From NCBI GenBank assembly GCA_903864935.1, contig CAIPHT010000014.1, forward strand, positions 1-42,985: 42,985 nt of DNA, given 5' to 3'. The notes under the pieces are model-generated. The model was not told the DNA's origin and did no database searches. It worked only from the letters and a program-made list of their open reading frames with translations. The first letter of the stretch is position 1. Every line of letters begins with the position of its first letter. Position numbers and translations under genes: made by a program. The DNA comes from Candidatus Vogelbacteria bacterium. GTDB lineage: Bacteria > Patescibacteriota > Minisyncoccia > Phycocordibacterales > XYD1-FULL-46-19. Of this stretch, positions 10,746 through 40,876 are shown in pieces.

Positions 10746-12239
<1,494 letters not shown>

Positions 12240-13226: not shown

Positions 13227-13303
13227 GCGCGTGTAGCTCAGGTGGTTAGAGCGCGTCACTGATAATGACGAGGTCGTAGGTTCGAGTCCTACCATGCGCA
13301 CCA
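13227..13303 (+). tRNA. tRNA-Ile(GAT) with encoded CCA
   Basis: Full 77-nt cloverleaf: acceptor GCGCGTG/CATGCGC, D stem GCTC/GAGC, anticodon stem CGTCA/TGACG with loop CTGATAA, T arm GTAGG-TTCGAGT-CCTAC, then ACCA. Confidence 0.98.
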
Positions 13304-13346
13304 AGTGCAGTAGGCATATCTTTTGATTTTAACTCGATGCCAACAG

Positions 13347-13385
13347 TAATGACGAGGTCGTAGGTTCGAGTCCTACCATGCGCAC
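13347..13385 (+). repeat. Exact 39-bp copy of the tRNA-Ile 3' half (att-like direct repeat)
   Basis: taatgacgaggtcgtaggttcgagtcctaccatgcgcac is identical to 13263-13301. Confidence 0.95.
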
Positions 13386-13392
13386 TAGGGGG

Positions 13393-13423
13393 AAAACAGT
13401 CTCTGTTTAGGGTACTGTTTTTT
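13393..13423 (+). terminator. Intrinsic terminator after the tRNA locus
   Basis: aaaacagt...actgtttt stem with a T tract. Confidence 0.7.
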
Positions 13424-13425
13424 GT

Positions 13426-13454
13426 TTGACTTAATTAAATATAAGTGGTACTTT
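13426..13454 (+). promoter_or_regulatory. Promoter for orphan gene 13525
   Basis: TTGACT-N17-TACTTT with TGn extension. Confidence 0.65.
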
Positions 13455-13510
13455 CGAAGCAGACTGCTTGTTAGGCTTTGTGGCCTGATAAAAATAGAAT
13501 CCAACCCTTG

Positions 13511-13521
13511 AAGGAGGTGAT
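13511..13521 (+). promoter_or_regulatory. Full-length Shine-Dalgarno sequence
   Basis: AAGGAGGTGAT is the exact complement of the canonical anti-SD AUCACCUCCUU; ATG at 13525. Confidence 0.8.
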
Positions 13522-13524
13522 AAG

Positions 13525-14001
13525 ATGAAGATTGCCATGATTAGCAAAAACAACTTTCTCCCTGGTCGGGGGGAGGGTTGGCCCAGAATTGTTAATGGTC
13601 ACGAAGTTTACCTTATTCAGGGTCGCCCTGAAACTCCCGAGAGTCTTCGTCGAGACATGAGAAGGGCCGCTGATTATCCTCGAGTCAGAAGTGTCGACTC
13701 GAGACTTGAGGCACGTAGAGACTGGGAATCCCTTAGTCGACTCCTTCCCACACTGGATAGAGTGATTGTCTATGTTGGTACCGATGGGTCTGATGAGAAC
13801 ATCGACCTTGCTGCGAAGCATTGCGGTACGAGGGTCCCTGTGACCTTCGTCTTCTGTGATTGTAATCTTGACCTCAAGAAACAGCTTCTTGCGAGTAACG
13901 GATTTGACCGGGAGAAGTTTGTCCTATGTCTTTGCGGCGGGAAGGAGAAGATGGAGGAGATTTACGAAAGGTTCATAGAGACAGGGGAACTCCCTGTCTA
14001 A
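13525..14001 (+). CDS. Orphan alpha/beta protein with two CxC motifs (158 aa)
   Basis: Own promoter, SD and terminator; FVFCDCN and VLCLCGG motifs. Confidence 0.75.
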   Translation: MKIAMISKNNFLPGRGEGWPRIVNGHEVYLIQGRPETPESLRRDMRRAADYPRVRSVDSRLEARRDWESLSRLLPTLDRVIVYVGTDGSDENIDLAAKHCGTRVPVTFVFCDCNLDLKKQLLASNGFDREKFVLCLCGGKEKMEEIYERFIETGELPV

Positions 14002-14004
14002 CAG

Positions 14005-14044
14005 CAGCCCCTGGCGGATACCCATCCGCCAGGGGCTGGTTTTT
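14005..14044 (+). terminator. Strong intrinsic terminator
   Basis: Perfect 15-bp stem cagcccctggcggat-accc-atccgccaggggctg followed by GTTTTT. Confidence 0.9.
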
Positions 14045-14077
14045 GTCTCTTCGGGGACTTATGCTAGAATGCTTTAT

Positions 14078-17000
14078 ATGGAAATCAAATCTAGATTTGA
14101 ATTTTTTAGACGAGATAATATTACTTATCTTGATAGTGCCGCGACAACTCAAGTTCCTGATCAAGTGATTCGATCAGTGGAACAAGTTTTGCAATACCGA
14201 GGCAACCCAAGTCGTAGCGCTCATTTAGTTTCTCTCCGCAATGAAGAGTTGCTAGCTGAGGCCAGAGCTAATATTGCCAAATTTATTGGGGCTGAAGCTG
14301 AAGAGATCGTTTTCTCTGGTAATGCTACTGGGGCCTTAAATCTAGCTGTTGATTCTATTGCTGATCTGATTAAGAAAGATGACGAGATAATTATCTCCGT
14401 GGCTGAACATAATTCTAATATGTTGCCTTATCTTAAGTTGGTAAAAAGAGGGGCGAATATTCGAATTGTCGGGATCAAAGATGGGGTAGTGAGTCTTGAT
14501 GAAATTAAGAAGACCCTAAACGACAAAACAAAAATTGTCGCCATTGGCCATTGTTCCAATGTTTTGGGCAATATTAATGATGTCGAAGAAATTGGGAAGA
14601 TTGTCAAAGATCATAACAAAGACATTTTTTATTTTATTGATGGGACCCAAGCCGTGGCGCATCTCCCCGTTGACGTGAAGAAAATTCAAGTTGATTTCTA
14701 TGCTTTCTCCAGTCACAAGATGTATGGTCCCGATGGTGTGGGTGTTTTGTTTATTAAAAAAGATATTCATCATTTATTAACTCCTACTCAAGTTGGCGGG
14801 GGGACAGTGAAGAACGTGGCTGTTACTTATGGTCAAGAAAAGGATATTATTTCTCCTGAGTATCATCAATCTCTAATTACGTTAGAAGGGGGGACACCGA
14901 ACACTTCAAATATTATTGGTCTTTCAAGAGCGGTTTATTTTATCCGTTCTCTTGGGTTAGAAAATATCAGGAAGCATGAATTAGAGTTATTAGAATATCT
15001 TATTGAGGGATTAAAGAAGATAGAGGAAGTTATCGTTTTTGGCCCTGAAGATTTTACTAAAAAAATTGGCCTAGCTTCTTTTGGCTTAAAAGACCATTCC
15101 GTAAAAGAGCTCGGTGATTATCTTGGCCGTCAAAAGATTTGTATTCGTTATGGTTCCCATTGCGCTTTTCCTTTGGCCGATAAATTGGGCCAAGAGAGTC
15201 TGCGTATTAGTTTTGGGGCTTATTCTGATATTGAGGACATTGATCGAATATTGGGCGAAATAAAACTCTTTTTTGATAAGAAAAAAGGTCTGATAAAAAA
15301 TCCTAATTTAGAAATTCTTAAGAATAAAATTTATTACAAAAATACTTTTATCACTCAATCGATAGGGTCTATTTTGGATAAATTAAGATCTGCTATATAT
15401 AATCCAGCTGAGACAGAAGTTGTTGTTATGGGTGGTCATTTCTTGGCTATCCCGGACATGCAAGATAATAAATTTTGGCCCAGTATCAAGCCGATGCTAC
15501 CAGAGAGGCTTCATGGTTTACTTGAAGAGTTCGGGATGACTTCTTTCCCCCTATTTTCCTGGGAGATGGCTTGCCAGACTGTGTCGAAACTTAAAGAACA
15601 AGGCGTTAGGGCCAAGCTTCTTATTGTGGCTAACGATACCACTGGGATTAACGAATTGAGACTTTCTAGCGCTAATAAAAATTCTCGGACAGCCGAATCT
15701 TATCGAGATGAATTACTGGCTCTGTTTGCTGGGGATGACGGAATACCCAAAGAATATGTCGAGATCTTAAAGAAATACAAATTAAGCAAAAAGGACCTTA
15801 TTAAAAGTGGTAAGGACTGCTTTATGCGGGAGACTATCTTACGCGCTAATTTCAAGAAATTTATCAGCGGAAATAAGAAATTCTTTGATGGGGTTATAAA
15901 TTATTCGGCCGAGGAAGGGGAGAACATTGATGTCGCTATTAATATTCTTGATAACCAGCAAATAAAGACTTGTAGCTTCCAAACCTTTAATTCTAAGACG
16001 GGAGGAAGATTTTGTATCGCTGAAGTCGCCGAATTGATGGCGGAGCTATTTGGTAAGGCCCCAGATGTTAACTTCGATTTCTTAAAAGAAAAAGTTAAGG
16101 AACCAAAAATTGAAGGCAAACATAAAATTTTTGTCATGTATTCTCCGGCCATGTGTGATAACGCTATCACAAGAGGAGGGGAACTCTACACGAAGGTGTT
16201 TTTGCAAGAAAAAGGTGTGGGTTCCTTTAAATTCTTTAATATACCATTAGGCCCTAATGCTGAGAGAGATCTTGCGATAGGCACTGAGATGAAATATATT
16301 TCAGATAAGGATTCGCTTGAGGTCTTGAATGTTGAGACTGAGCCAAGTTTTGCTGATCTGTGGAAGATTACTGAATATAATCTTCTCTATAATAGTAGCG
16401 CTTATGCTGATGAGGTAGAAAGTGTTTTTGAGAAAATTGGTATCAATAAAAATTCTAAGATATTGGACACTTGTGTCGGCCCTGGCTTTTTCTCGACCGA
16501 ATTACTGCAGCGAGGCTATAATTTAAGTACGGCTGATATTAGCGAAGAGACAATTAAACCATTTTATAAAGGTCTAGAGGAACTTGGGATTGAACATAAA
16601 GTTACCAAGTCTGCTTGGCTAGATTTGCCGAAGAATTATACTAAAGAATCTTTTGATATCCTCTTTAATCGTGGAAACTCGTTTATTTATGCCGCTGGCG
16701 GCTGGAATGAGGAACTTCCTGTAAACAAGGAGAAGTCGTTAGAAATTTTCTCGCAAACCTTGAAGATTTATTATGACTTACTAAAACCAGGAGCTTATCT
16801 CTATATTGATAAGTTTAGAGACTCAGAAATCCCCGACAAAAAAGTTGCGGCCAGACTAGAGATTACGGATTCTAAAGAAGAAAAGGATGTCATGTTTTTA
16901 GTAGAAAGACGCCCTGAAGAAAATACACGTTTTGCCCAATTGTCCTTGCGTGATACCTCTGATAATAAGGAGAAAATGATGTTGACGGGGTTGGTCTATG

Positions 17001-17113
17001 ATCTCAGTGAGGGAGAAATGGAGGATTTGTTAAAGAATGTCGGTTTCAAAAAGGTAGACAAATTAAGTCTTAAAGAAGAAAGGCATTTCGTTGTTTGGTT
17101 GGCGCAAAAATAA
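14078..17113 (+). CDS. Three-domain fusion: group II (SufS/CsdA-like) cysteine desulfurase + unknown domain + class I SAM methyltransferase
   Basis: YLDSAATTQ, EHNSN, DGTQ, SSHKMYGP (PLP Lys) and RYGSHCA (catalytic Cys); C-terminal LDTCVGPG and NRGNSF. ATG 14078 preferred because 14069 overlaps the -10 box TGCTAGAAT. Confidence 0.88.
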   Translation: MEIKSRFEFFRRDNITYLDSAATTQVPDQVIRSVEQVLQYRGNPSRSAHLVSLRNEELLAEARANIAKFIGAEAEEIVFSGNATGALNLAVDSIADLIKKDDEIIISVAEHNSNMLPYLKLVKRGANIRIVGIKDGVVSLDEIKKTLNDKTKIVAIGHCSNVLGNINDVEEIGKIVKDHNKDIFYFIDGTQAVAHLPVDVKKIQVDFYAFSSHKMYGPDGVGVLFIKKDIHHLLTPTQVGGGTVKNVAVTYGQEKDIISPEYHQSLITLEGGTPNTSNIIGLSRAVYFIRSLGLENIRKHELELLEYLIEGLKKIEEVIVFGPEDFTKKIGLASFGLKDHSVKELGDYLGRQKICIRYGSHCAFPLADKLGQESLRISFGAYSDIEDIDRILGEIKLFFDKKKGLIKNPNLEILKNKIYYKNTFITQSIGSILDKLRSAIYNPAETEVVVMGGHFLAIPDMQDNKFWPSIKPMLPERLHGLLEEFGMTSFPLFSWEMACQTVSKLKEQGVRAKLLIVANDTTGINELRLSSANKNSRTAESYRDELLALFAGDDGIPKEYVEILKKYKLSKKDLIKSGKDCFMRETILRANFKKFISGNKKFFDGVINYSAEEGENIDVAINILDNQQIKTCSFQTFNSKTGGRFCIAEVAELMAELFGKAPDVNFDFLKEKVKEPKIEGKHKIFVMYSPAMCDNAITRGGELYTKVFLQEKGVGSFKFFNIPLGPNAERDLAIGTEMKYISDKDSLEVLNVETEPSFADLWKITEYNLLYNSSAYADEVESVFEKIGINKNSKILDTCVGPGFFSTELLQRGYNLSTADISEETIKPFYKGLEELGIEHKVTKSAWLDLPKNYTKESFDILFNRGNSFIYAAGGWNEELPVNKEKSLEIFSQTLKIYYDLLKPGAYLYIDKFRDSEIPDKKVAARLEITDSKEEKDVMFLVERRPEENTRFAQLSLRDTSDNKEKMMLTGLVYDLSEGEMEDLLKNVGFKKVDKLSLKEERHFVVWLAQK

Positions 17114-17131
17114 GAGATTAGACAAATAATT

Positions 17132-17935
17132 TTGGAAGATACAAATAGCAAGAAAATTTTAGAAATACATGCCAACCCAACCTTAGATGAGGTTTGGGAT
17201 TTATGTGTAAGGAATTTCCTTTATGATCAAAAAAAGTATGTGAACGAAGTACTAGAAATTTTTGCTCGACTTGGGATAACCAAAGAATCAAAGATCGCTG
17301 ATGTTAGTGCTGGCGGGGGATTTCCCGCTCTTAATCTTATTGCTTTGGGCTACAAGGTGGATTGTTTTGATGGCTTTGCCACCGACTTATTTGATCAAAA
17401 TGCCAAAAAAGAGGGGCAAGATGTGACATGTAAAAAGGCTCTTTGGGAGGAACTCCCTGAGCTGGTTTCTCCTGGCGAGTATGATTTTGTTTTTTGTCGA
17501 GGCAATTCATTTATTTATGCTGGCGGGGGTTGGTCAGAAACATCCGGTTTTGATATTGAGAAGGTTAGAGCTGATTATATTAAAACGGCCAAAATTTTTG
17601 CCGGGATGTTAAAGGCCGGTGGCTATATGTATATAGATAAATTCAAAGATAGCGAACTTGGGTATAGAGAAAAACTTGCCACAATAAAAGTTGGGAGCAA
17701 CCTTGAGGACTTAGTATTTTTTTCAGAAAGATCCCCTGAAAGTAAGTTAAGAAAGGCTTCTGTCCAAAGAATGGCTGGTGGAGATGTAACTAACTTTGAG
17801 GTAAAAATTACTTATGATCTATCAAAAGAAGAATTAATTAATTTTTTGAAAGAGGGAGGATTTTCTGATGTTGAGGTTATTAATTCTGAGGTCCCCGAAG
17901 AGAAGCATTTTGACGTCTGGTTGGCAAAAAAGTAG
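17132..17935 (+). CDS. Class I SAM-dependent methyltransferase, glycine/sarcosine N-methyltransferase-like; paralog of the upstream C-terminal domain
   Basis: IADVSAGGG motif I and FCRGNSFIYAGGGW; TTG start. Confidence 0.82.
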   Translation: MEDTNSKKILEIHANPTLDEVWDLCVRNFLYDQKKYVNEVLEIFARLGITKESKIADVSAGGGFPALNLIALGYKVDCFDGFATDLFDQNAKKEGQDVTCKKALWEELPELVSPGEYDFVFCRGNSFIYAGGGWSETSGFDIEKVRADYIKTAKIFAGMLKAGGYMYIDKFKDSELGYREKLATIKVGSNLEDLVFFSERSPESKLRKASVQRMAGGDVTNFEVKITYDLSKEELINFLKEGGFSDVEVINSEVPEEKHFDVWLAKK

Positions 17936-19498: not shown

Positions 19499-20134
19499 AT
19501 GGAAGAGGTTGATAAATATGCCAAGATAATTTGGGAGTATATGCTAATGCACCACAGCCTCGAACCAATGGATGCAATTTTTGCTCTTGGCTCAAATGAT
19601 ATTCGTGTGGCCGAAAGGGCTGCCGAACTGTATCTCCAAGGCCAGGGGAAATACGTGATATGTTCTGGCGGTAACGGTAAGGCTTCAACTCTACCGAAGA
19701 CGGAGGCAGAAGTCTTTGGTGATGTGGTACTCTCTAAAGGGGTTCCTCAAGATAAGATAATATTAGAACCTAATGCGACGAATACTGGCGAGAATGTTAT
19801 TTTTACTAAAAAACTTTTAGCTGAAAAAGGGTTAAACTTTGAGTCTTTTGTCTTGGTTCAAAAGCCCTATATGGAGAGACGAACTTTTGCTACTTTTAGA
19901 AAACAGTGGCCAGAAGCAAAATGTGTCGTCACTTCGCCTCAAGTCTCTTTTGAGCAATATTATAATAAGGATGAAGATCTGAAAAATAGGTTTATAAATG
20001 TTATGGTTGGAGATCTACAAAGGATTAAAGAATATCCAGCCAGGGGTTTTCAAATTTCACAAGATATTCCAGCGGATGTTTGGGAAGCTTATGAAAAATT
20101 AGTCTCCCTCGGTTATACTAAGTATGTAACTTAA
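19499..20134 (+). CDS. YdcF/DUF218 family protein
   Basis: DAIFALGSND, SGGNG, EAEVF, ILEPNATNTGEN and VQKPYMERR motifs. Confidence 0.88.
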   Translation: MEEVDKYAKIIWEYMLMHHSLEPMDAIFALGSNDIRVAERAAELYLQGQGKYVICSGGNGKASTLPKTEAEVFGDVVLSKGVPQDKIILEPNATNTGENVIFTKKLLAEKGLNFESFVLVQKPYMERRTFATFRKQWPEAKCVVTSPQVSFEQYYNKDEDLKNRFINVMVGDLQRIKEYPARGFQISQDIPADVWEAYEKLVSLGYTKYVT

Positions 20135-22943: not shown

Positions 22944-24665
22944 ATGGCGGAAACTTTAATAAATTATTTTGGACAAACCGATTTTCGCGGCAAGCGACTT
23001 CGCTTTGGTATTAAAGATGAAGACCGGGCCAAGCACGTTTATATTATCGGTAAGACGGGGATGGGTAAGTCGACCTTGCTTGAGAATATGGTCATCCAAG
23101 ATATTAAGAATGGCGAGGGCGTAGCCTTTGTTGATCCTCACGGTAAGTCGGCTGAATTCTTGCTTGATTTTGTCCCGCCGGAGAGAGTAAAAGATGTTAT
23201 TTATTTTGCCCCCTTTGATCTCGAACATCCTATTTCTTTTAATATTATGGAGGATGTGGGGCAAGACAAGCGCCACTTGGTGGCCAACGGCTTGATGTCC
23301 TCGTTTAAGAAAATTTGGCCGGACGTCTGGTCTAGTCGTATGGAGTATATTCTGAACAATTGCCTCTTGGCCCTTCTTGAATACCCTGAGTCAACCCTGC
23401 TTGGTGTCAATCGTTTGCTCTCAGATAAGGCCTACCGTCAGAAGGTGGTGGATAATATTACCGACCCTTCGGTTCGTTCCTTTTGGGTTGACGAATTTGC
23501 TAAATATAATGAACGTTATATGCAGGAAGCGGGGGATGCGATTAAGAATAAGATTGGTCAATTTACCGCTAATCCTTTGATCCGTAATATTATTGGTCAA
23601 CCTAAGTCCACGATTGATTTGCGCCAAGTCATGGATGATAAGAAAATTTTGATTGTGAACTTGTCTAAGGGTCGCCTGGGAGAACAGAATGCTAACCTCT
23701 TGGGGGGCATTCTGATTACGAAGATTTATTTGGCGGCCATGTCGCGAGCGGGAGCTGAATCTAGCGCCTTATCACGTTTGCCCTATTTCTATCTCTTCGT
23801 TGACGAATTCCAATCTTTTGTAAACGAGTCTTTTGCCGATATTTTGTCTGAGGCCCGCAAGTATAAATTAAGTTTAACAATTGCTCATCAGTATATTGAG
23901 CAGATGCCGGAGGAGGTGAGGAATGCTGTCTTTGGCAACGTGGGTACAACCATTGCTTTTAGAGTTGGCCCCTTTGACGCGGAGGTGCTCGAGACAATCT
24001 TCTTCCCCACTTTCACTAAAGAAGATCTGGTTAATCTTGGTTTTGCTCAAATTTATTTAACCTTATCGATTGATGGTGTTGGCTCGCCACCTTTCTCGGC
24101 CACAACCTTGCCACCAATTCAAGTAGTTGGGGAGTCACTTAAAGAACAGATTATCGCCAATGTTAGACGTGTTTATGCCAAGCCTCGAGAAGTGGTTGAG
24201 AAAGAGGTGGTAGATTGGTATATCCCTGAGCCAAGTGCTGGTTCAAATAAAGGAACAAGCTCGACCTCTGGTGGAGGAGGGGCAAGTGCCCCGGCTCGTG
24301 TCAGTACCGGAGGAGGGGCCTCAGCTCCTTCACGAGCCAAGCCGGTTGAAACCACCACTCCTTTGCCAAGTAAGTCTCAGGTTACTGCACCCCTGCCTCC
24401 CAAACCCCTTACTCCATTAACGCCAAAGGAAGCACCCAAATCTTTTTCCTTAGGAATTTTAAATAATAAACCAAAAGATAATAGAAATAAGAATGAATTA
24501 AAGAATTTTTTGGATGAGATTCTGGCCGGTAAAAAAGAAAAGGCTGTCGTTGCTCCGAAGGTTGAGGTTAAACAAATGCCACAAACCCAAGCTCCCGTGC
24601 AAAATCAAGCTCAGAATAGTATGGAAGCGAAACTAAAAGAAATTCTAAAAGTTGACTCCGAGTAA
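22944..24665 (+). CDS. VirD4/TraD-like (HerA/FtsK superfamily) coupling-type ATPase with a low-complexity C-terminal tail
   Basis: HVYIIGKTGMGKST Walker A, FVDPHG, LFVDEFQ Walker B, LSEARKY, AHQY and GNVGT motifs. Confidence 0.88.
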   Translation: MAETLINYFGQTDFRGKRLRFGIKDEDRAKHVYIIGKTGMGKSTLLENMVIQDIKNGEGVAFVDPHGKSAEFLLDFVPPERVKDVIYFAPFDLEHPISFNIMEDVGQDKRHLVANGLMSSFKKIWPDVWSSRMEYILNNCLLALLEYPESTLLGVNRLLSDKAYRQKVVDNITDPSVRSFWVDEFAKYNERYMQEAGDAIKNKIGQFTANPLIRNIIGQPKSTIDLRQVMDDKKILIVNLSKGRLGEQNANLLGGILITKIYLAAMSRAGAESSALSRLPYFYLFVDEFQSFVNESFADILSEARKYKLSLTIAHQYIEQMPEEVRNAVFGNVGTTIAFRVGPFDAEVLETIFFPTFTKEDLVNLGFAQIYLTLSIDGVGSPPFSATTLPPIQVVGESLKEQIIANVRRVYAKPREVVEKEVVDWYIPEPSAGSNKGTSSTSGGGGASAPARVSTGGGASAPSRAKPVETTTPLPSKSQVTAPLPPKPLTPLTPKEAPKSFSLGILNNKPKDNRNKNELKNFLDEILAGKKEKAVVAPKVEVKQMPQTQAPVQNQAQNSMEAKLKEILKVDSE

Positions 24666-25448
24666 AGAGAGTATTTTTACAATGAAGAGACGGATTTCTC
24701 TTCTGGTTAAAGCCCAATAGAAATTTGGGTAATGTTCTCGATATTTTTTTATCAGCTCTAAATTGAGGGTCATTAATCTTATCCGGTCGGTAAGACTGAT
24801 ATTGCCCGGATGTTTTCTGTAGCCAAGATCAAGCGAAGGCAGATTGTGGAGTTTGTACTTTGCTCCGAGCCGTAGCCACAGGTCATAATCCTCAATACCG
24901 TTTAAATTAAGAGGATAAGCCCCAAGCTTAAGCGCTACCTCCCGACGGTAGAGGGCACTAGAATGAGCAAAAGCATTTTTAGCGAGGAGACTATTCTTAA
25001 TGGCAACAGCGCCTTCAGGATTAACATAGCGCTTAATCTCTTCTCCTTTCTCGTCAATTACGACAACACCTGTTCCAACCAAAGCGTATTCATAATTAAA
25101 ATCTAAGAAGTCGACTTGTTGGCTCAGTTTGTCTTTGGCGAGCCAGACATCGTCGCTATCAAGGACGGCGATATATTCGCCAGTAGATTTTTCTAGGGCG
25201 CGGTTGCGAGTAACACAGATGCCTAAATTTTTCTCATTTTTAAAATATTTAATCCTCTCATCTTTAAGATAGGGGAGTAAGACTTCGTGAGTATTGTCGG
25301 TTGATCCATCATCAACGATAATTAGTTCCCAGTCAGTAAAGTCTTGGGCCAAGATGCTGTCTATGGCCTCAGGTAGATATTGGCCACGATTGTAAGTGGC
25401 CATATTGATACTGACTTTAGGTTTTAATCGCGGGGTAATTTGATCCAT
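24645..25448 (-). CDS. GT2 glycosyltransferase
   Basis: VSINMATYN, ELIIVDDGSTD, LDSDD and EDYDLWLR motifs. Confidence 0.93.
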   Translation of the reverse strand: MDQITPRLKPKVSINMATYNRGQYLPEAIDSILAQDFTDWELIIVDDGSTDNTHEVLLPYLKDERIKYFKNEKNLGICVTRNRALEKSTGEYIAVLDSDDVWLAKDKLSQQVDFLDFNYEYALVGTGVVVIDEKGEEIKRYVNPEGAVAIKNSLLAKNAFAHSSALYRREVALKLGAYPLNLNGIEDYDLWLRLGAKYKLHNLPSLDLGYRKHPGNISLTDRIRLMTLNLELIKKYREHYPNFYWALTRREIRLFIVKILSLLGVNF

Positions 25449-26323
25449 GTTGAGGGAATAATATCGTCAACTTTTATACTACCATTAGTAAACCAGACAT
25501 CTGGGGCAATGACAATTTTGTTTGGATTTTGATTGAGCCAAGCTGGCCACCAGGCAAAACTAGAATTGGCGATAATATTGTGTTGGCATTTACTCATTAG
25601 CATCATTTCTTGATAATCGGTAAGGGGATTTTCTTGTTTTTTCTCTGAGACATAGGTTACCGGATGCCCGTTAAAAGAAATGTTTTCCTTGATCCAGGTG
25701 ATATCTTCGCTAAAGATGAAGAAGGTTGGGTTTTCCACTTTGCTCTCAATATATTTAACTGCTTTTTTGTAGTAATTTTCTGAGCAAATGCCAAAATCTT
25801 TTAAATTTTCTGGCCAGAGATAATCTCCACGCCTAACGGCGAGGGCGATAGAGTTTGTCGAGTTTATCTCGCGCAATAGATCGGGGTGAGTTTGCTCGAG
25901 AGGTATTTTGAGGGAAAAATCTCGTGCCAGAGTCTCTCGGACGTTATCAAAATATTTGTAGCTTTGCCAATAACCATTGAGATAGACATCTTTGTCGCTG
26001 GATATTTTTTCTATTGTTTTTTTGACAAAATTTGTCTCCCAGCCAATATGGTAATTTCTTAGTATCCTAAATTCAATGGCTCGACGGATTTTTCTAAAAA
26101 TACTCTTATCCTTTCGGCCGGGGTCAACTTCCTCTATCTCGTCTAAACTGGCAAAATTTTCAATGATATTGAAAATTCCTAGGCCATATGAGCGGTAAGT
26201 ATCTCGCTCGTAGTCTAGTTTATCTAACTTGAACTCTGTCTTTGTTTCGAGCGATAACCTTCGACCAAACGAATATTGGAACATCTGGTTACCGAGCCCA
26301 CCTTTTAAATTAACGATAATCAT
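25424..26323 (-). CDS. Alpha-1,2-fucosyltransferase-like (GT11)
   Basis: GGLGNQMFQY, GYWQSYKYF, VRRGDY, FSED and IIANSSFAWW motifs. ATG 26323 preferred. Confidence 0.9.
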   Translation of the reverse strand: MIIVNLKGGLGNQMFQYSFGRRLSLETKTEFKLDKLDYERDTYRSYGLGIFNIIENFASLDEIEEVDPGRKDKSIFRKIRRAIEFRILRNYHIGWETNFVKKTIEKISSDKDVYLNGYWQSYKYFDNVRETLARDFSLKIPLEQTHPDLLREINSTNSIALAVRRGDYLWPENLKDFGICSENYYKKAVKYIESKVENPTFFIFSEDITWIKENISFNGHPVTYVSEKKQENPLTDYQEMMLMSKCQHNIIANSSFAWWPAWLNQNPNKIVIAPDVWFTNGSIKVDDIIPSTWIKLPRD

Positions 26324-26333
26324 TTCTTTGACA

Positions 26334-27065
26334 TTATTTTTTAATAAACCAGAAACAGCCACAAGCATAAGAGCTTTTGTTCACTATTTCTTCCTTCTCG
26401 TTAACCACCGGGTCTCCCGATTCTGGGATAAAATAAAATTCTGCAAGTTCTAGGTCAGAAAAAAGCTCTTTAATCATTCGATAAGAATAAATACGATGAG
26501 CATTGAATTCTATTTTAGGTTGGCCAATCGGGACAACAAAGAGGAGGGAGCCACCTTTAGCCAAGACTCTCTTTAGTTCTTTGATTGCTTTAAGATCGCC
26601 GTCTGGGTCGAGGGGGTCGCCATAGCGCCCAAGACCGATATGCTCTATTGTGTGCATGCAAGATAAGGATTCAATACTCTCGTCAGGAAAGGGCAGCTTT
26701 GTTAGGTCGGCGGAGTAAGATTCAAGATTTGAGAGGGTTAACTTGGCTGGCCGGTAATCATAAAATTTTACCGGTAGCGAAGCGGAGAGAGTTGAGCTAA
26801 AGTAGAGGCTCGAAGAAATGTCGGTGTGGAAGTTTGGTTTGAGCTCAAGAACTTTTCTCACGGCCCAGGCTACATGGTAGACATAGTGACGATCGAAATT
26901 TGTGGTAATTGTTTTGTCTTTGATTTGGGGGTAAAAATCTTTTACTTTAATTTCAAATCTCTTCTTATTGTCCGCTTTTTTATATACCAAATAATCTCTT
27001 AGAACAAAAGGAGTTAGAGTTATCCGAATAGTTTTTTTGATGATTTTTTTTAGTTTGTTGCTCAT
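26334..27065 (-). CDS. DUF268-like methyltransferase-fold protein
   Basis: FDRHYVYH, DISS and SCMHTIEHIGLGRYGDPLDPDGD motifs. Confidence 0.8.
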   Translation of the reverse strand: MSNKLKKIIKKTIRITLTPFVLRDYLVYKKADNKKRFEIKVKDFYPQIKDKTITTNFDRHYVYHVAWAVRKVLELKPNFHTDISSSLYFSSTLSASLPVKFYDYRPAKLTLSNLESYSADLTKLPFPDESIESLSCMHTIEHIGLGRYGDPLDPDGDLKAIKELKRVLAKGGSLLFVVPIGQPKIEFNAHRIYSYRMIKELFSDLELAEFYFIPESGDPVVNEKEEIVNKSSYACGCFWFIKK

Positions 27066-28210
27066 ATTATCCTTAGTAAGTTGTCGATAGCTTCTTTTGC
27101 ATCCTCCACGCTTATTCCCTTTATACAGGGGGCCGGTTCGTCTGCTTTTAGATTTTTACTGCATAGCCAATTATCATTCAAGCACTTCATCTCTTTGTTG
27201 TAAATGATTAAGTTTTTTGTTAAATCCCCGTAAGGGAAAAATCGTTTAAAATGACCTCCTCCCATAAGACATATTGCTGGGGTTCCGGCGGCGGCCGCTA
27301 AGTGGAGAATCCCAGTATCGCTTCCAAAATAAAACCTAGATTTTGAAAGAAGGCCGAGCAATGATCCAATGCTAGTTTGACCGGCTAAATTTATAAAAGA
27401 GTCTTTGCCCGCGAGCTGTTTGGTAATGCTAGATATTACTGAAAGGTCGTCCTTCGTTCCGCAGATCACCGGGGTAATCTCTTTTTGTTTGAGATAATTG
27501 ATAACCTCGACATACTTGTTAGTGGGCCAAACTTTATAAGCTTGTCCCGCCCCGGGGAAGATTACACAAAATCTTTTTTTTGTTAGATCGTTCTCCTTAA
27601 TTATTGCTTCGGCTTGGTCCAAGTCATCTCGCTCAGGTTTGATTGTAGGGAAAGATATTTCGTTAATTGATGCCCCGAGAGATTTAATAAAAAAGATATT
27701 CCTTTCGAACTCGGTAGTGGCATTTTCGGGCACTTTTATAAGTTTGGTGTAGACCTTTTCTGAATGTTTTTCTTTTTTAGTATAAGAATAGTCTCCGTCA
27801 AAACCGATTTTTGTCTTTGCTCGACTAGCTGAGACAATTGCATCACCGATTACTTCTGGCGAAAATACGGGGTAGATTACTGTTTCGTACCCGTGTTTTA
27901 CGATATCTAGGATAAAACGTCGGCGATAAAGGAAATTCTTTGAGAACCTCTTGTTATCTAGAATGACAAATTTATCTATACCTTGAATCTTGGGGATTAA
28001 TTCTTGGGCAATCTTACTGACAACCAAGCTTATCTCGTGGTTAGGGAAGACCTCTCGGTAGTGCTTTAAGACAGGTAAGAAAATAATGTAATCGCCCAAC
28101 CCGTCTTTGCGAAAAATTAGCAGTCTCTTGATATCTGATTTTTCTTGTCTTGCAAAACCGGACTCAAAGTTAATCCAGCTATCAATAACGTTTTTTAAGA
28201 TTGATCTCAT
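27062..28210 (-). CDS. GT9 (heptosyltransferase-like) glycosyltransferase
   Basis: RKDGLGDYI, FPGAG..YKVWP and GSDTGILHLAAAAGTP motifs. Confidence 0.88.
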   Translation of the reverse strand: MRSILKNVIDSWINFESGFARQEKSDIKRLLIFRKDGLGDYIIFLPVLKHYREVFPNHEISLVVSKIAQELIPKIQGIDKFVILDNKRFSKNFLYRRRFILDIVKHGYETVIYPVFSPEVIGDAIVSASRAKTKIGFDGDYSYTKKEKHSEKVYTKLIKVPENATTEFERNIFFIKSLGASINEISFPTIKPERDDLDQAEAIIKENDLTKKRFCVIFPGAGQAYKVWPTNKYVEVINYLKQKEITPVICGTKDDLSVISSITKQLAGKDSFINLAGQTSIGSLLGLLSKSRFYFGSDTGILHLAAAAGTPAICLMGGGHFKRFFPYGDLTKNLIIYNKEMKCLNDNWLCSKNLKADEPAPCIKGISVEDAKEAIDNLLRII

Positions 28211-28211
28211 C

Positions 28212-28931
28212 TTACTTGGCCAAAACTTTTAATTCAAATGAGTATACTTCTGGGCTTGGTTTGTGGTATGAGCTGGCGGTAACTTTATTCCAGAATTTTT
28301 TATTGAGCTTGTAGATTTTGAGGAAGATTTTTTTAATTATTCTGGCTATCGGGGAATGACGGGCCAGGTCAGCTGGGTCAAGAAATTCTATTGTGTCGAA
28401 TCCCGCTGATCTTAGGACATAGATTAGACTGCCAGAAGTAAAGATTGTCGTATGAGTAAAATCTTCAAACATCCAGTATGACCCCGTGTTTGATTGAGCG
28501 TTTGGTGTGGTTAGATATAGTGCGCCCGTTGCTGTTAAAGTGTTTTTGATTTCTGTTAGGGTTTTAATGATTTCTTCTTTGTTAATATGTTCAATGACGT
28601 GAGTCATAATGATGAAGTCGTATTTTTTAGTATTCTTGCTAAAGAAGTCTTCAAGGGACGATATCTGTTCAACGTTTAGATTAATATTGTGGCAATGCAA
28701 GATGGCTTCATCTGAAATATCAATTCCTGACAGATTTGTGTAACCGAGAGACCTTAGATTATCTAGAACATGACCAAAACCACAACCAACATCGAGGATT
28801 GCCGCCCCTTTGTCTTCTGGCAAAATTGACAGCAGGTAGGGGGGTATCTTGTATCTCATCATAGATTCAGCTCCGATATTTCTATTAGCGAAGTATTTTT
28901 TATTTTGTATGCTACGGTTTAGGTTGTTCAT
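28212..28931 (-). CDS. Class I SAM-dependent methyltransferase
   Basis: ILDVGCGFG, GIDIS, HVIEH, TTPN and DFTH motifs. Confidence 0.88.
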   Translation of the reverse strand: MNNLNRSIQNKKYFANRNIGAESMMRYKIPPYLLSILPEDKGAAILDVGCGFGHVLDNLRSLGYTNLSGIDISDEAILHCHNINLNVEQISSLEDFFSKNTKKYDFIIMTHVIEHINKEEIIKTLTEIKNTLTATGALYLTTPNAQSNTGSYWMFEDFTHTTIFTSGSLIYVLRSAGFDTIEFLDPADLARHSPIARIIKKIFLKIYKLNKKFWNKVTASSYHKPSPEVYSFELKVLAK

Positions 28932-29698
28932 ATTTTTGAGGCTAAATATTTGCTATCTGAGCTCGTTTTGCTTATTAATATTTTTTTTATAATGAGATCC
29001 AGCTGAAGCCGGGAAAGCAATAGTATTAATGTGAATAACCAGTTAGGGATTTTTTTCTCAGTTAGTAAGTGTATATTTTTGCCATCTGAGCAGAGGTTTT
29101 TATTGAATTTTTTTGCTAAAAATTTTAGTGTCTCTGGAGAATAAAAAGAAATATGTTGACCGTGTTCGATTCCGTAATACTCCCAATTATCGTCAGGTAC
29201 TTCTTTTGGAAGAAGTCGAGTTGAAAAAAGAATATTTGAAGAAATTTTAAACATATCACCAATCTCTTCGAGGGGTGACAGCAAATGTTCAAAACACTCA
29301 AAGCAAGAAATGGCCTCTATATTTTCTCTGTCCTCGTAATCAAAGCCTTGGGCAAATAAGTTTGGAGTATATTTGTCATGATGTCGGAAATCTAGACCGT
29401 AATCACGCATTAGTCTCGTTAACACGCCGTAGCCTCCCGCGTAGTCTAAGTAGGTGTTTTTTCTCCCAAAAAGAGAAGTGAACAGAAGCAGTGTTTTTTT
29501 GGATAAATAGACGTTTCTTGATATGTAGCCCGTGTCACTGACATTTATCGGCTTCTCGTAAGCTTCTTCGAGCCAGGTTGGATTCTCTATAAACATGAAA
29601 CTGCAATCGCTACACTTCTCATAGCGGGCCTCATATTTACCCCTAATAACTGATTCTTTGACTATTTTTGCTTCTTTTCCACAGATTTTACATTTCAT
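28928..29698 (-). CDS. Class I SAM-dependent methyltransferase with an N-terminal CxxC-x-CxxC zinc-ribbon-like motif
   Basis: CKIC...CSDC, LDYAGGYG, FECFEH and GQHISFY motifs. Confidence 0.85.
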   Translation of the reverse strand: MKCKICGKEAKIVKESVIRGKYEARYEKCSDCSFMFIENPTWLEEAYEKPINVSDTGYISRNVYLSKKTLLLFTSLFGRKNTYLDYAGGYGVLTRLMRDYGLDFRHHDKYTPNLFAQGFDYEDRENIEAISCFECFEHLLSPLEEIGDMFKISSNILFSTRLLPKEVPDDNWEYYGIEHGQHISFYSPETLKFLAKKFNKNLCSDGKNIHLLTEKKIPNWLFTLILLLSRLQLDLIIKKILISKTSSDSKYLASKI

Positions 29699-30618
29699 AT
29701 TCCTAATATTTTTCTAATCCTCAGTCTTATCTTATCAGATGTGCTTACTAAGTAAACTTTTTTAAAGAGCCGAGAATCTGCCTCTTTGTTCACAATTGTT
29801 TCTATGGGGTGAGTTATTTTACTTAAGGGACTAGATTTTTGTCCCAATTTGCTACTTTTTTCGTTTGTGTGAGTAGAATTGTTTCCGAATCCTATGTTTT
29901 CGACCAAGTTAATATTGGGAGTTATCGCTATCCCTGACGCATTCATTATTGAATATGCCCATTGGGCATCCCAGGTATCTATTTTTTTATCTCTAACGTG
30001 CAAGAAGAGGGAATTTAAAAAGCGAGACATTCTCCTATCTTCAAATAATGCGTAAGCTTTATTGGAGGTGACGAGTTTTTCAAGACCTCTCATTTCGATG
30101 TCGTATTTCTTCCAGGCCCTTCTCCATGTCGCCCAGCCCCAAATGTGTGGGAAATGTGAAAAGTAGTAACTTCCTTGGCCAAATTGTTCCCCGAACTGGA
30201 GATTTAAACCACTTATGTGCATTATCCTCCCCTCATCTCTGTATCTCTCAAGTAACTCCTGGCAGAAAAGAAAGAAACTTTGGTTGGGTAAACAGTCATC
30301 TTCTAGAATTATACCCTCTTCAACATTTTGGAAAAACCAACTAATTGCCGAACTGACGCTATCTTTACAGCCAAGGTTTTTTTCTCTGAATAAGGTTTTA
30401 GTTTCGCAAGGCCAGTCTATCTCAGTGGCGACCTCTCTGGCCTCTTGGCAGAGTTTACCTTCTTCTGGTTTTGAGCTCCTTGGGCCATCCGCGGCGATAA
30501 AGAGCCTGGCTGGTTTTATTGATCTTATTGCTTCAAAAACGCGACGAGTTGTCTCGGGTCGGTTAAAAATAATAAAAAGAATTGGCACTTGATAAGATTG
30601 TGGGGATTCGATGTTCAT
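29695..30618 (-). CDS. Nucleotide-diphospho-sugar transferase (HlpA-like GT-A)
   Basis: PILFIIFNRP, AADGPR, NLGC, ILEDDC, WGWATWRRAW, WDAQW and NIGFG motifs. Confidence 0.85.
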   Translation of the reverse strand: MNIESPQSYQVPILFIIFNRPETTRRVFEAIRSIKPARLFIAADGPRSSKPEEGKLCQEAREVATEIDWPCETKTLFREKNLGCKDSVSSAISWFFQNVEEGIILEDDCLPNQSFFLFCQELLERYRDEGRIMHISGLNLQFGEQFGQGSYYFSHFPHIWGWATWRRAWKKYDIEMRGLEKLVTSNKAYALFEDRRMSRFLNSLFLHVRDKKIDTWDAQWAYSIMNASGIAITPNINLVENIGFGNNSTHTNEKSSKLGQKSSPLSKITHPIETIVNKEADSRLFKKVYLVSTSDKIRLRIRKILGI

Positions 30619-32546
30619 TATTGTTTACTGCAAAACAAATAATAATTATCTTTAGTATAAGCGGTTTCTTTATTGTAGATAGTCTGATAGTTATGGCTGG
30701 TATTTTTTATTTCTTCCGCATAAGAGAAGCTGGCATTTGATTTTTGATAGGCGAGGAGTAGATACTTGGCCTTAAAATAATCAAATTCTTTGATTAAGTC
30801 CTGCATGTTTTTATTTGACTCAGATAAGGCCCAGGTGCTGATAAAGAGATCGCAATTTATGACAGGGCCAATTGATTTGATTGTTTCTTTGTCGAGGGGG
30901 ATAATATTTATTTTCCCAGCTTTGACTATTGGATTTTCTCTGCTCACTAAATTAACAGTCGCTCTTCCCAGTATGGTCTTAAGATAAACTATTTGGATAA
31001 AAGAGAAGATGGGGATATCTATTATCGTGTAAGTTACCTCATTGTTAAGTTTTTTAAATAATTTGGCCATATTGCCATACCCGCCACCAACTTCTACAAT
31101 CGTCTTAAAATCAGAGGCCTTGGTTTTTGTTTCTTCAAAAAACTTAATGAGGTGGTAGAGATGGTGGATATTATTACCCGAAGAAATATACTCAATGTCA
31201 TTAAGGAGAGGTTTGCCAATCTTATATTCACGAAGAATCTCTCTTGCTTGGTTTCTAGTAAGATACTTGGCAATAAGAGATTTTTGAATATTTCGCCACG
31301 GCTTAAAAGTATACATAAACATCGTGTTTTTTATCACGGGGTTGTTTAGAAAAGAAAAAGAAAATTTATTGAGAAAATACTCTTCAATCGCTAGCATATT
31401 TTGGTTCCAGTCTGGCATGACAAAATCTGTGAAATCATAATTTCCCTTGGTTTCTAGATAAACCTTCTTGGTCTCCTGGTAAACATTCCAGAAATCTCTT
31501 CGGTTGATTCTTTTGGTAAGGGGGGAGAGGAGTGCCGAATAACCATAACGGTAGGCCTTAGCTCCGAAGGAATTTATTTTTGATTTTATTTTTTTTAACA
31601 TATTTTTTAATTTATGTTTGATTCTTAAATAATAACCGAAGAAACTATTTCTCTTGATATAGATCGCCGGGGGAAAAACAATGGGGAGGGGAGGATGATC
31701 TTTACCTAAAGTTTCAATAAAATTGGGTTTTAATGTGTTGCCCATATTTATTAATTCCTCCATGATGTTCCTGGTAAAATCTTGGTAGTCAAAATTGGTT
31801 ATAAAATCAAGAGCTTCTTTGGTAAAAACATAATAATGTTTAATGAGAATGTCTCGCCAATTATAATTCGTTTTGCCATTATTATATTCTCGTAAATAAT
31901 ACGATTCGTTGAAGTTTATGCGATGCAAATATTCAGCTTCAGGACAAGTGTAGGCCTTGAGACCAGCGCCTAAAAAATTCCAGGCAAAACCTTGGGTGTC
32001 ATAACCGTGGTCTGTGGGGTAGCCTCCCGCTTTGTCGAAAGCTTCTCTGGTATACATAAAATTAACATAGAGAGGGAAGAAGCCTTGGTTGGGAGTGAGA
32101 AGTGTCGCTAGTCCAATCTCTTGTCCGGGATAGAGTGAAGTGTCGACATGGTGAATATTTTTTATATTATTACCGCTAAATTTTATTGAACGATGAATTG
32201 ATACTCCGTCACACTTTTTCTCTTCGAGAAAGCCTACCATCTTCTCGAGTGTCCCCTTGGGCAAGAGGTCATCGCTGTCTAGACAAAAAATAATCTCACC
32301 CGTGGAGTTTTGGACCGCGGTGTTTCGAGTTGCTCCACCCCCCTTATTTTCTTCATGGCGGAAGGTTTTGATATTAGGGTGTTGTTTTTCTAGTTGTGTG
32401 ATTAGAGTAGGGCTATTGTCGGTTGAGCAGTCGTCTACGATAACAACTTCAAAAGGGAAGCTTAAATTTTGTTGGTAAAGAGAAGTTACCGCTTCTTCAA
32501 GAGTTTGAGCGCAATTGTAGCAGGGAATAATAACTGACAGTTTCAT
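30618..32546 (-). CDS. GT2 glycosyltransferase fused to a putative sugar O-methyltransferase
   Basis: N-terminal SVIIPCYN, VDDCSTD and LDSDD; C-terminal IVEVGGGYGNMA, IIDIP and ISTWALSE. Confidence 0.82.
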   Translation of the reverse strand: MKLSVIIPCYNCAQTLEEAVTSLYQQNLSFPFEVVIVDDCSTDNSPTLITQLEKQHPNIKTFRHEENKGGGATRNTAVQNSTGEIIFCLDSDDLLPKGTLEKMVGFLEEKKCDGVSIHRSIKFSGNNIKNIHHVDTSLYPGQEIGLATLLTPNQGFFPLYVNFMYTREAFDKAGGYPTDHGYDTQGFAWNFLGAGLKAYTCPEAEYLHRINFNESYYLREYNNGKTNYNWRDILIKHYYVFTKEALDFITNFDYQDFTRNIMEELINMGNTLKPNFIETLGKDHPPLPIVFPPAIYIKRNSFFGYYLRIKHKLKNMLKKIKSKINSFGAKAYRYGYSALLSPLTKRINRRDFWNVYQETKKVYLETKGNYDFTDFVMPDWNQNMLAIEEYFLNKFSFSFLNNPVIKNTMFMYTFKPWRNIQKSLIAKYLTRNQAREILREYKIGKPLLNDIEYISSGNNIHHLYHLIKFFEETKTKASDFKTIVEVGGGYGNMAKLFKKLNNEVTYTIIDIPIFSFIQIVYLKTILGRATVNLVSRENPIVKAGKINIIPLDKETIKSIGPVINCDLFISTWALSESNKNMQDLIKEFDYFKAKYLLLAYQKSNASFSYAEEIKNTSHNYQTIYNKETAYTKDNYYLFCSKQ

Positions 32547-32547
32547 T

Positions 32548-33186
32548 TTATCTTGCGGGTTCGATAACCATCATATCCCGAATAATTTTGAAGGAAAAGC
32601 GCTCTTGTTTGGCCACTAGCTCGCGGATCTCCTTAATCGTTGGGTAGTCGTGAGTGCCATCAAAACAACGAGCATCATCAATCATAATAACGTCTTTTTT
32701 ATTTTTTCTGGCAAATATGGTTAGCAGTTCTTTGACGATGGGTGTCTCTATTGCCGCTTTGGCGGTGCCCTCGCCTGAATAGTGGGCATCAAGCCAGAAG
32801 AAGACGGGTTCAGTAATCTGAGGCAATAACTCAATGAGTTTTTCTCCACTGTCACCGTGAATGATGGTTATGTTTTTGTCATCGGCAAACATTTTTTTAG
32901 CATTCTCGTAAAGTTCATCAAAGAGTTCAATTGAGATAATTTTAGAGAATGTTCGACGAACGGCTTTAACCATTAGGCCCCCGGCCGTGCCTGTCTCAAT
33001 AAAGGTTTTTAAGCCATGCTTTTTGCCTAAGCGGCGAATGATTCTGTGTTTGATTGGATCGGGGGCTGGATCTGGACGGCCCGCTAAGTACCATTTAATA
33101 TTGATGTTTGTTTGTCTCACTTTTCTGACAATAGTTTGAGGAATTATCGCCTTTAAAAAGGCTCTTATTTTTTTATACATATTCAC
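32548..33186 (-). CDS. Methyltransferase-fold protein
   Basis: FIETGT..G, SIEL, HGDS, FWLDAHYSG and IDDAR motifs. Confidence 0.72.
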   Translation of the reverse strand: MNMYKKIRAFLKAIIPQTIVRKVRQTNINIKWYLAGRPDPAPDPIKHRIIRRLGKKHGLKTFIETGTAGGLMVKAVRRTFSKIISIELFDELYENAKKMFADDKNITIIHGDSGEKLIELLPQITEPVFFWLDAHYSGEGTAKAAIETPIVKELLTIFARKNKKDVIMIDDARCFDGTHDYPTIKEIRELVAKQERFSFKIIRDMMVIEPAR

Positions 33187-33194
33187 AATACTAC

Positions 33195-35525: not shown

Positions 35526-35527
35526 AT

Positions 35528-36502: not shown

Positions 36503-36511
36503 ATTAATGAA

Positions 36512-37318: not shown

Positions 37319-37322
37319 TTTC

Positions 37323-37958: not shown

Positions 37959-37987
37959 GTTTATATATTATTATCAGGTAATGGTAA

Positions 37988-39292: not shown

Positions 39293-39295
39293 GTT

Positions 39296-39541: not shown

Positions 39542-39549
39542 TAACCGCT

Positions 39550-39588: not shown

Positions 39589-39593
39589 GTGGA

Positions 39594-40796: not shown

Positions 40797-40876
40797 AAAC
40801 GGTTTGAGCATAACACGATTTTGTCGTCTTTACCACCTTTTTATTCCTTGAAAATCTGTGTTATATTAGAGCCATT

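Follow-up and report, generated by a model that had tools for sequence, protein, structure and literature searches.

A SufS-fused and apparently undescribed protein domain from Candidatus Vogelbacteria as a tentative sulfur-transferring partner of a cysteine desulfurase

What does a domain without any family assignment do when it is held between a cysteine desulfurase and a methyltransferase? This question is raised by a 1014-amino-acid (aa) open reading frame (ORF) at 14069-17113 (+) in a 42,985-nucleotide stretch of DNA from Candidatus Vogelbacteria bacterium (GenBank assembly GCA_903864935.1, contig CAIPHT010000014.1, positions 1 to 42,985; hereafter, the window). The encoded protein opens with a cysteine desulfurase domain of the SufS type (type II; class V aminotransferases; aa 1-397; 14069..15259, +), followed by an unassigned middle region, here termed domain X (aa ~420-745), and by a C-terminal GNMT/GSMT-type S-adenosylmethionine (SAM) methyltransferase (MT) domain (aa 746-1014 plus stop; 16304..17113, +), an arrangement that we denote SufS-X-MT. 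An initial annotation had described the central domain at 15341-16303, an interval that coincides exactly with aa 425-745 of ORF 14069-17113, as having a HUP/class I synthetase-like layout, and had proposed a nucleotidylating or aminoacyl-tRNA-using enzyme that activates the substrate or accepts sulfur from the SufS domain. Our analyses lead us to favour, tentatively, a reading in which X takes over the persulfide sulfur of SufS and transfers it to a small molecule that it binds and may activate with a nucleotide, and that is methylated afterwards.

The two flanking domains were recognized by Pfam and NCBIfam, which assign aa 19-393 to the class V aminotransferase/SufS type and aa ~777-1010 to the class I SAM methyltransferases (Pfam: Methyltransf_31). 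The SufS domain matches Pfam Aminotran_5 at 1e-104 and TIGR01979 (sufS) at 5e-103, the latter with 345 bits, below the 475-bit equivalog cut-off. The Lys217 that binds pyridoxal phosphate (PLP), together with His114, Arg360, His364 and the persulfide Cys365 (within GSHCA), is invariant in 30/30 fused proteins, so that the fused SufS is read as a catalytically intact, persulfide-forming desulfurase. Type II SufS desulfurases need a dedicated sulfur acceptor, and neither SufE nor SufU is encoded in the window; on these grounds, X would be the dedicated partner and acceptor of the SufS to which it is joined. The fusion was further examined in a distribution scan taking one genome per GTDB species, in which 28 loci with 29 fused genes were found in addition to the window, and X lies behind SufS in all 28 loci (29/29 genes) as well as in the window itself. 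Sulfur acceptance from SufS, as initially proposed, is thus consistent with the strict fusion, with the intact SufS catalytic residues and with two or three invariant cysteines in X.

The middle region could not be assigned to a known family by sequence. No Pfam or NCBIfam model covers aa ~400-745, so the label "unassigned" was correct, and 29 members of the X family gave no Pfam match even at E<=5, tRNA-synt models included. PADLOC returned no match for the X domain or its family, phmmer and profile searches with X found no match among PDB sequences, and a literature search on the SufS-X fusion yielded no relevant report. X is also rare, as a word-indexed search of 5.8 billion proteins produced 8 matches; a HMMER scan of 1.84 billion representatives recovered two groups, namely the fused SufS-X/SufS-X-MT proteins and standalone X proteins of 290-390 aa in at least ~15 clusters; the profile used in that scan contained SufS C-termini, so that SufS matches dominate, the ~30 top rows are informative and weaker X relatives are possibly masked. 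A second indexed search with a clean X alignment added "hypothetical proteins" of Dyadobacter and others. Judged by these searches, X appears to constitute a previously undescribed protein family.

X carries a set of conserved motifs, which a script located at the sites initially assigned to them: GGHF (aa 455-458; 15431..15442, +), AND (aa 521-523; 15629..15637, +), RET (aa 587-589; 15827..15835, +), FCIAE (aa 648-652), which contains C649-x-x-E652, and SPAMC (aa 692-696; 16142..16156, +), which contains P693-x-x-C696. The five cysteines counted in aa 425-745 are likewise present, at positions 502, 584, 635, 649 and 696. Across 22 homologs sharing 18-55% identity, the columns of G456, H457, N522, F553, Y563, E588, C649, P693 and C696 are invariant, and those of D523, P560, F595 and G645 are nearly so; the residues singled out by the initial annotation as a possible catalytic cluster (G456-H457, N522-D523, E588, C649 and C696) are therefore conserved, with D523 alone among its Gly-His, Asn-Asp, Glu and Cys positions falling slightly short of invariance. 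In a 29-sequence alignment, E588 is the sole fully invariant column and C635 (IKTC; 15971..15973, +) emerges as a nearly invariant third cysteine. The 30 fused orthologs, which are 43-94% identical, have 68 positions with at most one exception, and this clade keeps the strings NDTTG.NE, where the AND motif extends as NDTTGINEL, and SKTGG.FC, which in the window reads SKTGGRFC (aa 642-649; 15992..16015, +) and leads through a Gly-rich loop to the invariant Cys649. Conservation across the wider family does not extend to the segment NIPLGPNAER, which follows the strand at 719-727. This conserved motif pattern is far beyond chance. The absence of a PP-loop, also recorded at the outset, was confirmed, since the pattern [ST]GGxD[ST] occurs nowhere in the protein and the corresponding loop reads MGGHF; neither H.GH, T.GN nor KMSKS-like strings were found by script in the whole 1014-aa protein, and in the wider family the first HIGH-like position is held by M, C, I or S.

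Structure prediction placed these residues on a common framework. A first AlphaFold2 (AF2) model, built from an 8-sequence alignment, reached a pLDDT of 69, and a second, built from a 29-sequence alignment, reached a pLDDT of 86.3 with a pTM of 0.90. The latter is a confident α/β fold with the strands β1 449-454, β2 514-520, β3 685-693, β4 719-727 and β5 742-745, whose core (aa 449-745; 15413..16303, +) is preceded by a poorly conserved linker bearing a long helix (aa ~421-442; 15260..15412, +). From this linker helix at 421-442 the elements run through β1, G456-H457, a β-hairpin with two helices, β2 and N522-D523 into an insertion of ~160 residues (aa ~523-684), mostly helical with small hairpins, which splits the core; they continue with the Gly-rich loop, the helix 647-661 that C649 starts, β3, the helix 694-711, β4, a further helix and β5. 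The strand and helix calls of the initial annotation are upheld by this model, in which the strand 449-454 precedes GGH, a helix is followed by the strand 514-520 ending in AND, the strand 685-693 ends at P693, and C696 stands in the start of the helix 694-711. The GH, ND and PxxC motifs all sit at the C-termini of strands or the N-termini of helices, and E588 opens the helix 588-601. X is thus predicted to be a discrete, autonomous enzyme-like domain in which the invariant or nearly invariant G456-H457, N522-D523, E588, C649 and C696 would cluster along the C-terminal side of the sheet.

These same observations bear on whether X is catalytic at all. A non-catalytic role for X, whether as a spacer or in oligomerisation or regulation, would agree with its lack of any known catalytic motif, but we consider it highly improbable in view of polar and Cys residues that stay invariant at 18-55% identity, of the confident globular model and of the occurrence of X as a standalone gene in several phyla. 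Nor do we give much credence to X as a hydrolase or transferase with a Cys-His-Glu/Asp triad, of an amidase- or acyltransferase-like kind, whose chemistry (on alanine or an acyl intermediate, for example) would be unrelated to the SufS sulfur. Such a role could draw on the strand-turn-helix position of C696, reminiscent of a "nucleophile elbow", on the invariance of H457 and E588 and on the standalone X genes that lack desulfurases, yet GATase, DJ-1, α/β-hydrolase and cysteine-hydrolase folds are absent from the Foldseek top 50, and the invariant C649, the near-invariant third Cys and the strict SufS fusion would be left unexplained, which makes this role quite improbable.

Foldseek comparison of both models with the PDB returned ArgRS, CysRS, MetRS, MshC, class I LysRS and cyclodipeptide synthases on top, with PP-loop NAD synthetases ranking below them, at TM-scores of 0.31-0.39 and root-mean-square deviations of 7-16 Å. 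The best E-value was 1.9e-4 for the model with pLDDT 69 versus 1.1e-2 (probability 0.85) for the model with pLDDT 86. Non-Rossmann folds, a confident match to which would have spoken against the initial proposal, do not compete among the matches of either model. We therefore read the X core as probably Rossmann/HUP-like, with the cores of class I synthetases as its nearest known shapes and with no close structural relative in the PDB. Accordingly, one part of the term "HUP/class I synthetase-like" holds, in that a discrete α/β domain of nucleotide-binding-like appearance has the class I aminoacyl-tRNA synthetases (aaRSs) and cyclodipeptide synthases as its nearest PDB folds, while membership in class I is unsupported: the TM-scores are low, HIGH and KMSKS are absent, an anticodon-binding domain is lacking, no Pfam tRNA-synt model matches, and hhalign gave the X-family profile a probability of 0.5% against E. 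coli CysRS and of 0.4% against a 25-sequence CysRS profile, whose members, gathered by a DNA-pattern scan of viral contigs, are 29-54% identical to E. coli CysRS. Because the TM- and E-values are weak, the motifs are missing and hhalign stands at 0.4%, the likeness amounts to a loose fold resemblance only.

A true class I derivative of the CysRS/MshC/ArgRS or cyclodipeptide synthase kind, activating an amino acid as an adenylate or using aminoacyl-tRNA as initially proposed, and with its invariant His and Cys residues forming a Zn site of the CysRS type for the selection of a thiol substrate, is for these reasons unlikely, although several observations speak for it. CysRS, ArgRS, MetRS, MshC, class I LysRS and the cyclodipeptide synthases are the top Foldseek matches in both models, an AlaX-like gene lies near one standalone homolog, and a manual reading found the element order colinear with E. 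coli CysRS. In that reading, β1-GH of X pairs with β1-HIGH, β2-ND(-TT) with β2-N-ITD, FMRET with EPRAT, the insertion with CP1, the GGxxC-helix with the GWHIEC209-helix, and the strand-PxxC with the strand leading to H234 (HH). The Zn ligands of CysRS are reportedly C28, C209 and H234, and H457, C649 and C696 presumably fall at these positions. This colinearity is manual pattern matching, and against it stand the missing HIGH and KMSKS, the lack of any Pfam tRNA-synt_1* match in 29 members, the two hhalign values given above, the want of an anticodon- or tRNA-binding domain and TM-scores of at most 0.39.

Returning to the favoured sulfur-transfer reading, the reaction would begin with SufS Cys365 forming a persulfide from L-cysteine, the sulfane sulfur of which would be handed to C649 or C696 of X, the other X cysteine then serving to resolve or relay it; alternatively, the cysteines and H457 would jointly bind a metal. 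A cysteine at the N-terminus of a helix usually marks a reactive thiol, and both invariant X cysteines occupy such positions in the AF2 model. X may furthermore bind an adenosine-containing nucleotide through the Gly-rich loop after β1 and the acidic residue after β2, which are the classical adenosine-binding positions. The nucleotide would activate a small carboxylate- or carbonyl-bearing acceptor lodged in the crevice of X, possibly adenylated first by analogy with MnmA, ThiI, TtuA and LarE, so that sulfur could replace oxygen, and the GNMT-like methyltransferase or methyltransferases would methylate the thiolated product. Since every canonical ATP motif has been lost from X, we give about even odds to the nucleotide activation (adenylation) step, which is modelled on those enzymes.

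A rather unlikely alternative dispenses with nucleotide chemistry altogether and takes X as a sulfur or metal acceptor comparable to SufE, SufU or IscU, carrying a persulfide, Zn or an Fe-S cluster on C635/C649/C696 (with H457/D523/E588) and passing the sulfur or cluster to other proteins. Three invariant or nearly invariant cysteines with an invariant His, Asp and Glu would suit this role, as would the acceptor that a type II SufS needs in a window encoding no SufE or SufU, the absent ATP motifs and the existence of standalone X genes without a methyltransferase. On the other hand, with ~300 residues and a Rossmann-like crevice bearing a Gly-rich loop, X is much larger than SufE or SufU and has no Pfam SufE/NifU match, and its conserved fusion and synteny with small-molecule GNMT-type methyltransferases indicates a small-molecule product over cluster delivery.

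The methyltransferases themselves were analyzed with a 34-sequence profile, which matched GSMT (5gwx, 9.7e-14) and GNMT (1d2g, 1.1e-7) in the PDB over profile positions 13-165, the N-terminal substrate-cage region included. NF051855 scored 33.6 bits versus its 350-bit cut-off, and the assignment is therefore to the GNMT/GSMT superfamily, not to the equivalog. Directly downstream, a second, paralogous gene of the same type (MT2; 17132..17935, +) encodes a 267-aa protein that is 34% identical to the fused MT domain (E 7e-52). The closest public relative of the window (L005), a Candidatus Paceibacterota metagenome-assembled genome (MAG), shares its synteny and encodes a main protein that is 95% identical. 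Both MT2 (17132-17935) and the DUF218 gene (19499-20134) are missing from the otherwise syntenic L005; MT2 is therefore accessory even between near neighbours. We also considered, and set aside, a phosphoethanolamine methyltransferase that would supply the glycan cluster with LicD lying 20 kb downstream, as no PMT structures occur among the PDB profile matches and the LicD linkage is not conserved in other genomes.

The fused genes spread through the candidate phyla radiation (CPR), in Paceibacterota, Andersenbacteria, Falkowbacteria, Saccharibacteria and Peregrinibacteria, and through DPANN archaea, in Woesearchaeota and Nanoarchaeota, with a few further MAGs labelled Gammaproteobacteria or Bdellovibrionales. 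The full SufS-X-MT architecture (~1010 aa) occurs in 20 of the 28 loci (21/29 genes, one locus having two tandem copies), and a second methyltransferase gene follows in 10 of these 20. In the remaining 8 loci the protein is SufS-X only (~750 aa), with a methyltransferase gene after it in two and before it in one, so that a separate GNMT/GSMT-family methyltransferase adjoins the main gene in 13/28 loci. The tandem pair consists of two complete SufS-X-MT genes of 1013 and 1041 codons, stop to stop, in one MAG (L008:6738-12918). On an alphaproteobacterial contig (L001:8650-10957), SufS and X lie in different frames that overlap by ~135 bp, either through a frameshift or through an assembly error; no methyltransferase is present there, and the 3.5 kb downstream looks non-coding (rRNA-like junk ORFs).

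Other neighbours of the fused loci are not conserved, with the exception of a TrmB-family helix-turn-helix (HTH) gene, which is transcribed divergently from the X-containing gene in 6/28 fused loci and likewise beside standalone X in four of five CPR-type contexts. Examples of these HTH genes, encoding ~260-275 aa, are L010:5732-6550, L035:7033-7818, L136:5979-6803, L138:6063-6857 and L139:5598-6410. The TrmB-type gene and the X-containing gene form a conserved two-gene unit. Serine recombinases and UmuDC lie near some fused loci, and since the neighbours are mostly unconserved, recombinases are nearby and MT2 is absent from L005, the SufS-X(-MT) unit resembles a mobile accessory module that is self-contained for the most part. 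Carriage by phages or plasmids was not borne out, as IMG/VR contains no X relative and plasmids gave no match. A tRNA-modification enzyme combining an MnmA-like thiouridylase with an N-methylase is likewise unlikely, given the GNMT-type methyltransferases, the sporadic distribution near recombinase genes and the lack of an RNA-binding domain.

Standalone X genes occur in several phyla and in varied settings. In a Flavobacteriaceae MAG, a cystathionine-lyase-like PLP protein of 614 aa is encoded two genes away from standalone X, which offers supporting context for the favoured sulfur-transfer reading. In Dyadobacter and on a related metagenome contig, a conserved 460-490-aa protein directly precedes standalone X (L002:6448-7929 and L004:2040-3416); the two proteins share 34% identity (E 4e-80) and have no significant Pfam, NCBIfam, PADLOC or PDB match. 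Dyadobacter-type pairs are close to integrase, resolvase and type I restriction-modification (R-M) genes, and on the related metagenome contig an amino-acid permease, a flavin N-monooxygenase-like gene and the AlaX-like gene mentioned above are near standalone X. A defence role for the standalone Bacteroidota X, which is near integrases, R-M genes and Fic, was considered, and PADLOC found nothing.

Several of these observations weigh against sulfur transfer to an activated small molecule and keep our preference for it tentative. PP-loop, HIGH and KMSKS are all absent from the protein, and the likeness of X to any nucleotide-binding enzyme is weak, the TM-scores not exceeding 0.39 and the good model having no PDB match under E 1e-3. 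The spatial clustering of H457, C649 and C696, like the strand order, is deduced from the predicted topology alone, and the Asp following C696 is not conserved across the wider X family. GNMT-type methyltransferases normally N-methylate small amino acids, a reaction that does not obviously need a thiolated substrate. Finally, many standalone X genes are paired with a TrmB-type regulator and have neither a desulfurase nor a methyltransferase nearby, from which it follows that X must also function without a fused sulfur donor.

The metabolism of CPR bacteria and DPANN archaea is minimal, and a large share of their genes lacks an assignment; it is in this setting that an intact desulfurase is hard-wired to an apparently undescribed domain and to glycine-type methyltransferases, in 28 species-level genomes that come mostly from these two groups and thus from Bacteria and Archaea alike. 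Should X prove to be a sulfurtransferase, it would represent a new family moving persulfide sulfur into a small molecule and would point to an undiscovered sulfur metabolite in these symbionts; descent from a class I synthetase would instead provide a new non-translational recruitment of a synthetase core, beside MshC and the cyclodipeptide synthases. A bolder proposal, which we regard as unlikely, is that SufS-X-MT, with or without MT2, is a self-contained, horizontally spread CPR/DPANN synthase in which X represents a C-S bond-forming enzyme of a new class and the product is a hitherto undescribed methylated sulfur (or selenium) metabolite, such as an ergothioneine-like thio-betaine or a low-molecular-weight thiol. 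In such a synthase, X would be a highly diverged class-I-synthetase-like fold that keeps the His-Cys-Cys metal site of the CysRS/MshC type after the loss of HIGH and KMSKS, and as a sulfurtransferase it would belong to none of the PP-loop, rhodanese, radical-SAM and YcaO families. In any case, the X family merits a Pfam entry, and its invariant residues are a ready mutagenesis list.

The remainder of the window adds observations that stand apart from X, and its gene context is of a kind typical of CPR (Patescibacteria). Upstream of the main gene are a complete 16S rRNA gene (10746-12239) and a tRNA-Ile gene (13227-13303); the remaining 30 kb hold no 23S or 5S, and the rRNA operon appears to be unlinked. 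Within 13227-14068, two copies of the 3' half of tRNA-Ile(GAT) make up a perfect direct repeat of 39 bp (13263-13301 and 13347-13385), the second copy of which ARAGORN labels "tRNA-Stop". That copy is followed by 683 bp at 48% GC (38% in the main gene) with a 158-aa ORF (13525-14001) that has no Pfam match. This stretch is absent from L005, in which the tRNA is directly followed by the SufS-X-MT gene, and it resembles a scar left behind by an insertion at the tRNA. Downstream of MT2 follow MurD, the DUF218 gene and MurC. Between a DUF4015 glycosyl-hydrolase-like gene and a glycan cluster, the ORF 22944-24665 has weak matches to TrwB/TraG-type coupling proteins (type IV secretion ATPase) and is conserved in L005. 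The cluster itself (24645-42961) is a large one for glycan synthesis, with GT2, GT11 and GT9 glycosyltransferases and several SAM methyltransferases, DUF268 and FkbM types among them; it also encodes a polysaccharide deacetylase, LicD, a flippase, a Wzy_C/TPR protein and, at 39594-40811, a fusion of a cytidylyltransferase with a GHMP kinase.

How, then, does X compare with known systems? The class I aaRSs CysRS, ArgRS and MetRS, together with MshC, are the best structural matches of X in both models, and they share with the modelled X an α/β core carrying a large insertion, a Gly-His right after the first strand and conserved residues along the C-terminal edge of the sheet; in the manual comparison, conserved Cys and His residues of X would coincide with the Zn-holding sites of CysRS and MshC. 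X differs from the class I aaRSs in having x-G-H (M-G-G-H457) in place of HIGH, no KMSKS, no anticodon-binding, stem-contact or tRNA-binding domain and no sequence or profile similarity, and in being fused to a desulfurase and a methyltransferase, whereas those are translation enzymes. Cyclodipeptide synthases are HUP/class-I-like Rossmann enzymes of ~230 aa that lost the ATP motifs and carry a catalytic Ser after the first strand and a conserved Tyr/Glu pocket; they appear among the Foldseek matches of X with low probabilities (0.2-0.7), but X has GH in the catalytic-Ser loop, is ~100 residues larger (~300 aa) and shows no sequence similarity to them. SufE, SufU and IscU, in turn, differ from X in fold and in size, X being twice their ~140 aa and having no Pfam or NCBIfam SufE or NifU match. 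On the methyltransferase side, the glycine-betaine pathway of GSMT and SDMT similarly has two paralogous GNMT/GSMT-family methyltransferases side by side, although here they are fused or linked to SufS-X, which is absent from the betaine pathway, and their scores are far under the family cut-offs.

In functional logic, X would be closest to the PP-loop sulfurtransferases MnmA, ThiI, TtuA/TtcA/Ncs6 and LarE, in which a persulfide-forming desulfurase serves a HUP-type domain that carries either a pair of catalytic Cys or three Cys binding a cluster (PMC12494993, which also summarises the scheme of a desulfurase with an adenylating α-hydrolase). X has two invariant and one near-invariant Cys and is fused to SufS, this partnership with a persulfide-forming desulfurase being found, as genetic evidence only, in the window and in the 29 fused genes; PP-loop NAD synthetases are also among its weaker Foldseek matches. 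Unlike these enzymes, X has no SGGxDS, no Pfam or NCBIfam relationship to them and no RNA-binding domain (THUMP, OB-like), and its partner methyltransferases are small-molecule GNMT types, not RNA methyltransferases. The YcfA-YcfC system for 6-thioguanine shows a similar two-part layout, in which a nucleotide-activating α-hydrolase-type enzyme and a desulfurase-fold PLP enzyme make a small-molecule C=S, YcfC being a C-S lyase on a cysteine adduct without the persulfide Cys (PMC12494993). In the present proteins, by contrast, SufS Cys365 is invariant, and X is not the canonical α-hydrolase that YcfA is. Thus, although by its sequence X appears to lack the defining motifs and the homology of both the HUP sulfurtransferases and the class I synthetases, in our reading its mode of action is nearest to that of the desulfurase-coupled HUP sulfurtransferases, and its shape is nearest to the cores of class I synthetases.

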